Below, in pieces: positions 1 to 27,612 of a stretch of 40,346 bases of DNA. The notes under the pieces are model-generated. The model was given only the letters and a program-made list of their open reading frames with translations. It was not told the DNA's origin and did not search any database. The position numbers were made by a program, and so were the translations under genes. The DNA comes from a virus. The stretch is taken from the UHGV virus genome UHGV-0260710. One strand, written 5' to 3'. The first letter of the stretch is position 1, and every line of letters begins with the position of its first letter.

Positions 1-422
1 CGCTCACCAGTTACCGGACTTGTAGTCCAATCGTCATGGAATTTAGCACCTAGCAACTTCAAGAATTTAATGTGAGACTTATTGCCTGACCACACGTAGT
101 TCCAGATGGTCCCGTATTGGTCTAACATTAAGTCCCTGTACTCAGAGATACGCTTTATGAACTCTCGCTTCTCTTTAGGTCTCAGCTTATAGACCAGACC
201 GGAAGTCAAGAACCATACGTTATCCCCTTGGTTTCCACCATAGGCAAACACTTCGCCTACACCGTTAGTTAAAACCACAGATGACGGAGATAGGTGCTTA
301 AGCAGTCTTTCAGAGAGACCAACGGTTGACCCGTAGTTTGCTTTGCACTCATTAACATCATCTGCTGAAAGATGCCACAGAAAGTATTGGACATCTGGTT
401 CCGTAGCCTTGCGAATATACAT
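1..422 (-). CDS. gp13: Internal virion protein A (gp13-like), 3' end runs off window start; ATG at 420-422 with AAGGAG RBS
   Basis: Hand translation from 422 gives MYIRKATEPDVQYFLWHLSADDVNECKANYG... with no stop for 140 codons; lies after gp12 and before gp14 (at the window end) as in T7. Confidence 0.6.
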   Translation of the reverse strand, partial: MYIRKATEPDVQYFLWHLSADDVNECKANYGSTVGLSERLLKHLSPSSVVLTNGVGEVFAYGGNQGDNVWFLTSGLVYKLRPKEKREFIKRISEYRDLMLDQYGTIWNYVWSGNKSHIKFLKLLGAKFHDDWTTSPVTGE

Positions 423-24838: not shown

Positions 24839-25039
24839 TTACCCTTGGAATCCTACAGTGTTGGGCCATAGCGTAACGGTTTTACGCTTGGAGGTGATAA
24901 GGTCGGTAAATGATATCCGATATGCTGTGCCCTCAGGTGCTAGTATGTTGCCCACATAGCTCTTGGTAGTTATGCGTATTGGACCATCGCCTACCAGATA
25001 TACGGACTTAAGTCTATCAATTATATCGTTGCGTTTCAT
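24839..25039 (-). CDS. Hypothetical early protein (66 aa)
   Basis: ORF whose ATG overlaps the stop of the upstream 53-aa ORF (ATGA). Confidence 0.45.
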   Translation of the reverse strand: MKRNDIIDRLKSVYLVGDGPIRITTKSYVGNILAPEGTAYRISFTDLITSKRKTVTLWPNTVGFQG

Positions 25040-25197
25040 TGTTGGTTATCCTCAGCGTGCAAGCTGTCGTGTATGCGCTTGCGGCCCTCGTAGACCGCCT
25101 TCAGGTGACGTATAGCCGCATCGTGGTTTAACTGCCCGGTCTTGACCATAATCCGGGCGTTGGTGACGTGGTGCTGGCATAGACCGTAAGTTACCAT
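25036..25197 (-). CDS. Small hypothetical early ORF (53 aa), translationally coupled to Ocr
   Basis: ATG shares the A of the Ocr TGA stop (TGATG); hand translation [53 protein letters not shown]. Confidence 0.35.
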   Translation of the reverse strand: MVTYGLCQHHVTNARIMVKTGQLNHDAAIRHLKAVYEGRKRIHDSLHAEDNQQ

Positions 25198-25709
25198 CAC
25201 TCGCAGTCATCCTCAGCAGACGCAGGGTCGAACACTACGTTATCGTTGATGTCCTCGACCTTCAGGTGGCGACCTATCGCATAGTGATCTTTGGCACATG
25301 CAGTAGCGACATCAAGTGATACAGCTTGCTCAACGAATAGGCCTGTTTTAGCGTCTACTACCCAGTATTCTCCCTCCTCGTAGCAGCGCTCTTCAGGCTC
25401 GAACCAGACCACATCAGAGCTATTAGACACATCGTTATACAGTGCCTCATAAATGCGAGCTTGTAGGATGCGCGTTACGTCCTTGGTATCAGGCATCAGC
25501 CCAGAGTCTTCGAACTCATGGTCAATACCATCAGCAGCCATCACCGTGAAAATCTCGTGGTAATAGTGCGGAACCATATTGTCTACGACTTCATGTAGCG
25601 CATCGTAATAATCATCGCCTTCAGCTATTTCGTCGTACTGAATGCGCTCGTTAAATGCTTCAACGGTTGCAGCCAGCAGCTCATAGTATGCGTTAGCGTT
25701 ACGTTCCAT
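25197..25709 (-). CDS. ocr: Ocr-like anti-restriction protein (gene 0.3) with C-terminal extension
   Basis: 170 aa; core [36 protein letters not shown] matches T7 Ocr (117 aa); about 55 extra C-terminal residues. Confidence 0.85.
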
Positions 25710-25924
25710 AATTATATCCTCTCAAAGTTGTTTGTGTATGTTAGTGACTATCAGTCAGGACCCTGAGCCGCTCAAGTCAAGCCCGTCTCGCGGTAGACTC
25801 AAGGTCCTGTAGTTAATCACTATCGGCGCACATTAAGAGTTTATCCAGATTGTTAAAGAGCATTCCCTTCAGTCAGAGGACTTCAGGTAGACCATTTCAG
25901 TGTTGGTCGTCACCGTTGTGTCGA

Positions 25925-27263: not shown

Positions 27264-27612
27264 CTATTGCATCCTGTAAGCTATCGGTAGCATATCTATA
27301 GGTAACACCGTCCTTCGTCTGGCTAGTCTTCCACTTACCTGAACACCTCTTAATACTGTGGGCCAGCACCTCATGTCCTGACTCTTTCCTCTTCTTACAG
27401 CATTAACCGAGTTCTGAGACTTTGTGGCAAGCCGTAGGTTTTCTCTACGATTGTTCAACTTGTTCCTGTCAATATGGTCAACAACCATTCCATCAGGCAC
27501 TGGTCCGTAGAACATCTCGTACACTAAGATGTGCACAAAATGCTCATGGACCTTGTAGTATTTACCGACCAGACCCGACTATACAGCCGGGAACGCTATC
27601 GTCGTACTTCAT
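27264..27612 (-). pseudogene. HNH endonuclease paralog split by a frameshift (remnant or requires recoding)
   Basis: GTG-initiated 90-aa ORF (27264-27536) holds the HNH core HILVYEMFYGPVPDGMVVDHIDRNKLNNRRENLRLA; 15 codons in another frame upstream (MKYDDSVPGCIVGSGR, with TAGGAGGATAA-ATG RBS) plus the open HNH frame (..GKYYKV..) align to the N-termini of the intact paralogs (..[13 protein letters not shown]..); coordinates +/-1. Confidence 0.45.

Follow-up and report, generated by a model that had tools for sequence, protein, structure and literature searches.

The ocr gene of the virus genome UHGV-0260710 encodes a protein of 170 aa, net 53 residues longer than the 117-aa Ocr of phage T7, which raises the question of what the additional residues are and what they might do for a DNA mimic. 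Ocr is a textbook DNA mimic that blocks type I restriction and BREX and triggers PARIS. To our knowledge, nearly everything that is known about Ocr stems from the 117-residue T7 protein. The window, that is, the whole stretch of 40,346 nucleotides that was analyzed, has the appearance of a complete genome of ~40 kb that is circularly permuted and in reverse-strand orientation, and the 10 kb around gene 0.3 shows 92-93% identity to Escherichia Kayfunavirus phages (K1F-like Studiervirinae).

Gene 0.3 and its Ocr core

The Ocr-like ORF described at this position in the initial annotation, together with the motifs quoted from it, was confirmed by family and PDB searches. The window protein matches the Pfam family ocr (PF08684) over residues 8-96 with an E value of 4e-32 and a score of 111 bits (cutoff, 25), and it matches the PDB chains of T7 Ocr (1s7z, 2y7c, and others) with an E value of 2e-28. 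It also matches PHROG 2568 ("ocr-like anti-restriction") over residues 1-143 with an E value of 1e-55. The alignment with the T7 chains runs without gaps from residue 10 to ~104, and past residue ~96 only a Trp and acidic residues align. The homology to T7 Ocr claimed in the initial annotation is therefore correct, but its extent of ~115 residues is not, since good similarity ends at ~96. Over residues 10-96, the identity to T7 gp0.3 (PDB 1S7Z, 2Y7C, 8Q56, and 8V45) is roughly 60-65%, and the two proteins share F54 and L82, a strongly acidic core, and the position as first early gene. They differ in that helix D of T7 Ocr runs on into the acidic tail, which ends at residue 117, whereas the helix of the window protein ends near residue 95.

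F54 and L82, which are dimer-interface residues of T7 Ocr (PMC9122126, PMC10802264), are invariant in an alignment of 43 long-form homologues and are kept in the window protein, where their numbering equals that of T7 because the alignment contains no gaps. The core holds 22 acidic and 5 basic residues (net charge of −17), and the net charge of the whole protein is −31, compared with −28 for T7 Ocr. Three core helices were predicted by AlphaFold2 (AF2), at residues 7-26, 35-69, and 75-95; residues 7-95 of the monomer model are all-helical, but with helices B and C merged and pLDDT values of 52-62 around residues 60-80. The dN/dS is 0.20 over the core (residues 1-94) and 0.04 in helix D (residues 73-94). 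Judged by its sequence, the core almost certainly works as T7 Ocr does, and an acidic helical core of the T7 gp0.3 type with the dimerization residues would make the protein a DNA mimic of the Ocr family.

The position of gene 0.3 as the first early gene matches that of the 0.3 genes of K1F and EcoDS1, and host promoters are annotated upstream of 0.3 in the EcoDS1 record. A sigma-70 scan upstream of the window gene yielded no more sites than were found in shuffled sequence, and the single site adjoining the gene, which overlaps the ribosome-binding site, was set aside. The downstream gene encodes a gp0.4-like protein that shares 88% identity with one of 51 aa, for which PF26807 (Phage_T7_GP04) is a precomputed hit; no match for the window protein was found in the local Pfam copy. 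Its ATG overlaps the stop codon of the ocr gene (TGATG), which suggests translational coupling. Elsewhere in the window, a 90-aa ORF at 27264-27536 on the minus strand matches the HNH_3 endonuclease family (E value of 4e-22); its probable counterpart in the closest relatives is annotated as an HNH homing endonuclease.

Table 1. Features of gene 0.3 and its neighborhood in the window, with dN/dS values of the segments beyond the core
Feature	Position	Strand	Residues	dN/dS	Remarks
Shine-Dalgarno sequence GAGAGGA	25717..25723	-			7 nt before the ATG; direct sequence reading
Gene 0.3 (long-form Ocr)	25197..25709	-	170 codons		ATG start; TGA stop at 25197-25199; ORF list of the window
Ocr DNA-mimic core	25428..25709	-	1-94		Pfam ocr, T7 Ocr PDB, AF2
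Conserved connector	25398..25427	-	95-104	0.14	Common to long and short forms
Variable acidic linker PEERCYEEG	25371..25397	-	105-113	0.45	Holds the 5' acidic-codon direct-repeat copy
Extra domain, predicted folded	25224..25370	-	114-162	0.375	Net charge of −5; AF2, dN/dS
Domain, strand 1			114-120	0.05	
Domain, strand 2 region			121-131	0.57	
Domain, helix plus loop			132-147	0.94	
Domain, strand 3-4 hairpin			148-162	0.06	
Acidic C-terminal tail ASAEDDCE	25200..25223	-	163-170		Holds the 3' direct-repeat copy; equivalent to the short-form C terminus
gp0.4-like downstream gene	25036..25197	-	53 aa		88% identity to the PF26807-bearing 51-aa protein

Layout, predicted fold, and conservation beyond the core

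The layout of the region that follows the core was derived from an alignment of 43 full-length homologues and from two AF2 models, one of the full-length protein and one of residues 93-170. The initial annotation had reported ~55 residues without a T7 counterpart; an extra region is indeed present, but it comprises about 66-75 residues in four pieces (Table 1). The linker, which ranges from 0 residues (CLB_P1) to ~20 residues among the homologues, reads PEERCYEEG in the window protein compared with the usual AEESDEEDE, so that a Cys and a Tyr are added, and its pLDDT is below 50 at residues 107-111. The extension had also been taken for an extra module fused onto the end of Ocr. The module itself is borne out by its predicted fold, its conservation, and the purifying selection on it, but because the acidic ...EEDCE C terminus is common to the short forms of Ocr, the domain looks to sit inside the acidic tail rather than to be fused onto its end. 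Long and short forms alike keep the Cys of the final ...DCE, and C138 of the domain helix is nearly invariant. T7 Ocr is not known to contain a Cys.

Residues 114-162 are predicted to fold as a beta-beta-alpha-beta-beta domain with pLDDT values of 85-91 in both AF2 models. The strands comprise residues 115-119, 125-130, 149-152, and 158-160, and the helix comprises residues 132-144. The domain shows a hydrophobic core pattern, and W116, G146, H148, and P162 are invariant. The full-length model has a pTM of only 0.53 with the linker at low confidence; these values predict a tethered domain that does not pack on the core.

Selection was analyzed by the Nei-Gojobori method with 13 long-form genes of Kayfunavirus (78 pairs). 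Purifying selection acts on strands 1, 3, and 4 of the domain, whereas strand 2 and the helix region evolve almost neutrally (Table 1). Synonymous divergence in the domain is not depressed, indicating that the conservation acts on the protein. In the helix, L132, A135, C138, and Y143 are conserved and the remaining positions vary; this spacing suggests one conserved, probably buried, face. Such a pattern would be expected of a folded domain under selection whose sheet face (W116, H148, E152, D153, D156, D161, and P162) stays constant while its helix region changes fast. The change in the helix region could reflect relaxed constraint or diversifying pressure, two causes that pairwise averages do not separate.

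These results bear on the proposal that the extension is a longer T7-type acidic, unstructured tail which extends the DNA mimicry by charge alone. Such a tail would agree with the acidic and low-confidence linker (residues 105-113) and C-terminal tail (residues 163-170) and with the net charge of −5 of the domain, and the T7 region after residue 99 mimics flanking DNA. However, residues 114-162 are predicted to be folded at a pLDDT of ~90, with the hydrophobic pattern and the four invariant residues noted above, only 9 of the 49 residues of the domain are acidic, and the dN/dS of 0.05-0.06 of strands 1, 3, and 4 is far tighter than charge alone needs. We consider this proposal very improbable. 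The initial annotation had named an unstructured acidic tail as one part of the outcome that would undo its claim, and this objection fails against a stretch that is predicted to be folded and is under selection.

Distribution of the long form and loss of the domain

The long form is the norm in the K1F-like lineage and is not peculiar to the window, contrary to the initial annotation, which had treated it as unusual. A long form that is common in the lineage was the other part of the refuting outcome named there, and this part does apply. A tblastn search with the last 76 residues found 72 phage records, including those of K1F, SH3, CLB_P1, LM33_P1, RDN8.1, and Hafnia phage yong1, and all matches lie within the ocr gene. 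By blastn, the domain DNA was found in 72 records and the core DNA in 533. When the full-length protein was searched against a collection of 5.8 billion proteins, the best 120 clusters all had lengths of 162-179 aa, and at least 120 clusters carry the long architecture. The gp0.3 of K1F, with 169 aa and the same layout, has been in GenBank since 2005, and genome papers list a plain "169 aa DNA mimic ocr" (PMC8861465). Our full-text literature searches found no published discussion of the extra domain. The long-form Ocr proteins of Kayfunavirus (K1F, SH3, CLB_P1, RDN8.1, and yong1) have the same architecture, lengths of 162-179 aa, and 70-93% full-length identity to the window protein, for which that of SH3 is the best GenBank match (89% protein identity). 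In some GenBank records, e.g., OM355495 (ZH4), OM937123 (CY1), LT594300 (LM33_P1), OR594184, and PV611674, the long-form Ocr is misannotated as "protein kinase," "N4-like RNA polymerase," or "NinH protein," and in Shigella phage ESh23 the long-form ocr gene is flagged as nonfunctional due to mutation.

A more distant version of the domain was found in the Ocr of Escherichia phage Ebrios and Aeromonas phage PZL-Ah1, which has 170-174 aa and a core ~87% identical to that of the window protein. A domain of similar size lies in the same place but shares only ~31-33% identity with the window domain, and BLASTP with the window domain alone gave no match to that of PZL-Ah1. By hhalign, the two versions were aligned with a probability of 94% and an E value of 1e-7. 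The best fold match of the domain in the viral structure library BFVD is a protein of 170 aa with 28% identity; as its length is that of the PZL-Ah1 protein, it is likely the version of the Ebrios/PZL-Ah1 clade. At positions 1-1125 of both PZL-Ah1 (L004) and Ebrios (L005), a T3-type SAM hydrolase gene is followed, two small genes down, by a long-form ocr gene, and two anti-restriction strategies thus stand side by side in these phages.

Short forms of Ocr occur in Przondovirus (112 aa), in Vectrevirus (109 aa), and in many phages of Kayfunavirus, among them EcoDS1 (110 aa) and Bas105 and phiYIO1-1 (114 aa). They have the same core, VVWFE connector, and acidic end as the window protein but lack residues 114-162, and their C termini read ...EEDCE or ...EDCDD. 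In the long forms, the domain is flanked by direct repeats, GCT GAR GAG ... GAC GAG GAG GAC on the 5' side and GCT GCT GAG GAG GAC TGC GAG on the 3' side. At the junction, the 110-aa forms read GAG GCT GAG GAG GAC TGC GAG and the 114-aa forms read ...AGC GAC GAG GAG GAC TGC GAG. At the codon level, each short form of Kayfunavirus is thus a long form minus the stretch between one repeat pair (GCT-GAR-GAG or GAG-GAG-GAC), and the two different junctions indicate that in-frame deletion occurred independently at least twice. In a neighbor-joining tree of the core DNA, long and short genes interleave as sister pairs (window/L013, L035/L010, L030/L017, L008/L014, and L036/L012). The domain is repeatedly lost by in-frame deletion between the flanking direct repeats, which marks it as a modular, dispensable accessory.

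The window gene is itself a mosaic. Its core DNA (25398-25709) is closest to that of the short-form phage Bas105 (96.2%), whereas its domain DNA (25224-25370) is closest to that of Citrobacter phage SH3 (94.6% nucleotide identity); the phages that resemble the window most over the surrounding 10 kb reach only 71% protein identity in the extension.

Frameshifted, truncated, and fused variants of Ocr occur in nature and could be taken to mean that the extension is a nonfunctional read-through or an annotation artifact. This idea is refuted by the selection analysis: the dN/dS stays under 1 and falls to 0.05-0.06 in two segments. Furthermore, more than 120 clusters and 72 phage genomes conserve the open frame, the fold is predicted with confidence, and a protein identical to the window Ocr (P0002) is present in public assemblies on four independent contigs. 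We assign practically no probability to it.

Two sets of such variants were inspected. The public Ocr variant P0103 ends in "...GRHLKAVYEGHKRIHDSLHAEDK" and joins the Ocr domain in-frame to the C-terminal half of a gp0.4-like protein. The join lies at an RHLK motif shared by Ocr and the gp0.4-like gene (window counterparts, Ocr residues 147-150 at ~25260-25271 and the gene at 25036-25197), which suggests a microhomology-mediated deletion between adjacent genes. In three related samples (L037-L039, from the Logan assemblies SRR33193082-84; positions 2667-3180 in L037), the ocr gene is broken by a frameshift in the linker, which leaves a 117-aa Ocr ORF overlapped by a 59-aa ORF with the domain. 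This split may be genuine or may stem from an assembly error that recurs in the GAG/GAA repeat.

Relatives and possible role of the domain

Searches by tblastn and with profiles revealed no genuine stand-alone copy of the domain and no copy on another protein. Apart from the PHROG of Ocr itself, no Pfam or PHROG family was found for it. Pfam matches to Kelch_2, DUF6172, and PepSY were all under the threshold; PepSY (PF03413) was matched by a sole homologue, P0090, with 16.8 bits against a cutoff of 24 over 16 residues (a "VDAxTG" hairpin), and by the window protein not at all. The extension alone gave almost no matches in the collection of 5.8 billion proteins, in which the full-length query succeeded, because candidates there are drawn from a word index. 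A profile of the extension searched against 1.8 billion representative proteins gave two weak matches, P0122 and P0123. P0122, a 2,313-aa repeat protein, was rejected as a short motif match ("VEDxNxxxxYDP"; 15% probability over 27 columns in hhalign), and P0123 was inspected at the sequence level. The long Ocr proteins are missing from this result, presumably because short forms represent their 50%-identity clusters. With a broader profile, "free" domain proteins of 59 and 41 aa appeared among the 5.8 billion proteins, but they were rejected as the downstream halves of ocr genes split by a frameshift; on the contigs with the 59-aa ORF, a 117-aa Ocr ORF overlaps it. A Foldseek search of the domain against the PDB found nothing below an E value of 1. 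Among the structures set aside, ClpS, the C-terminal domain of ribosomal protein L7/L12, the T4 antitoxin Dmd, and AcrIF9 have 10-20% identity to the domain without any sequence signal; this likeness reflects a very common small fold and is not evidence of kinship or shared function.

What is known of T7 Ocr offers a framework for the role of the domain. T7 Ocr without residues 99-116 is fully active, and the residues after 99 occupy the place of the DNA that flanks the recognition site (PMC3439906). In BREX, a single Ocr dimer bridges two PglX molecules (PMC11341690), and in PARIS, AriA contacts an Ocr monomer at its dimer interface (F54/L82), which is distant from the C terminus (PMC10802264). 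We are inclined to regard the window protein as a functional Ocr DNA mimic that carries a dispensable, lineage-typical accessory domain, probably protein-binding, at the outer ends of the dimer. The ~49-residue domain would lie within the disordered acidic C-terminal tail, the part that is dispensable in T7, and a flexible acidic linker, variable in length, would connect it to the core. Because the T7 residues beyond 99 take the position of flanking DNA, we infer that a dimer would display two such domains at its outer ends. The domain would probably be a noncatalytic module for protein binding that modulates the choice of host proteins engaged by the mimic: further contacts to a defense protein might form where flanking DNA would lie, or the recognition of Ocr by sensing systems might be altered.

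In line with the second activity or altered sensing suggested in the initial annotation, it could also be proposed that the domain is an independent second anti-defense effector fused to Ocr, which inhibits another host system or hides Ocr from PARIS and similar sensors. We consider this possible but rather unlikely, as the domain is never found alone or on another protein, with the "free" copies being only frameshifted ocr genes, and its fold matches are at noise level. Moreover, the interface that AriA grips is far from the C terminus, and F54 and L82 are unchanged here. A third proposal is that the domain serves self-association or stabilization, altering the oligomeric state, half-life, or solubility of Ocr without a host target. 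No confident contact between domain and core was predicted by AF2, in agreement with the low pTM and the linker pLDDT below 50, short forms are common and evidently viable, and T7 Ocr needs no such element; we therefore think it improbable.

A more far-reaching reading, which we rate as doubtful, is that the domain is an as yet unrecognized anti-defense or anti-sensor module active only when tethered to Ocr. It might, for example, contact part of a host system where the DNA flanking the target site would lie, or it might stop an Ocr-sensing abortive system from firing. If this is true, the hypervariable helix and the repeated loss of the domain would be the record of an ongoing arms race.

The long-form Ocr proteins are an undescribed variant of a well-known protein whose sequences have been in the databases since K1F. 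A whole genus of coliphages, with K1F and CLB_P1 among its members, carries an Ocr with an extra domain, predicted to be folded, that lacks a family assignment. Since close relatives such as EcoDS1 and Bas105 provide clean natural deletions, the role of the domain can be tested directly with matched long and short forms. If the domain does nothing measurable, it is an annotation detail only; if it changes which defenses are blocked or which sensors fire, it would bear on the prediction of host range and on the diversification of DNA mimics.
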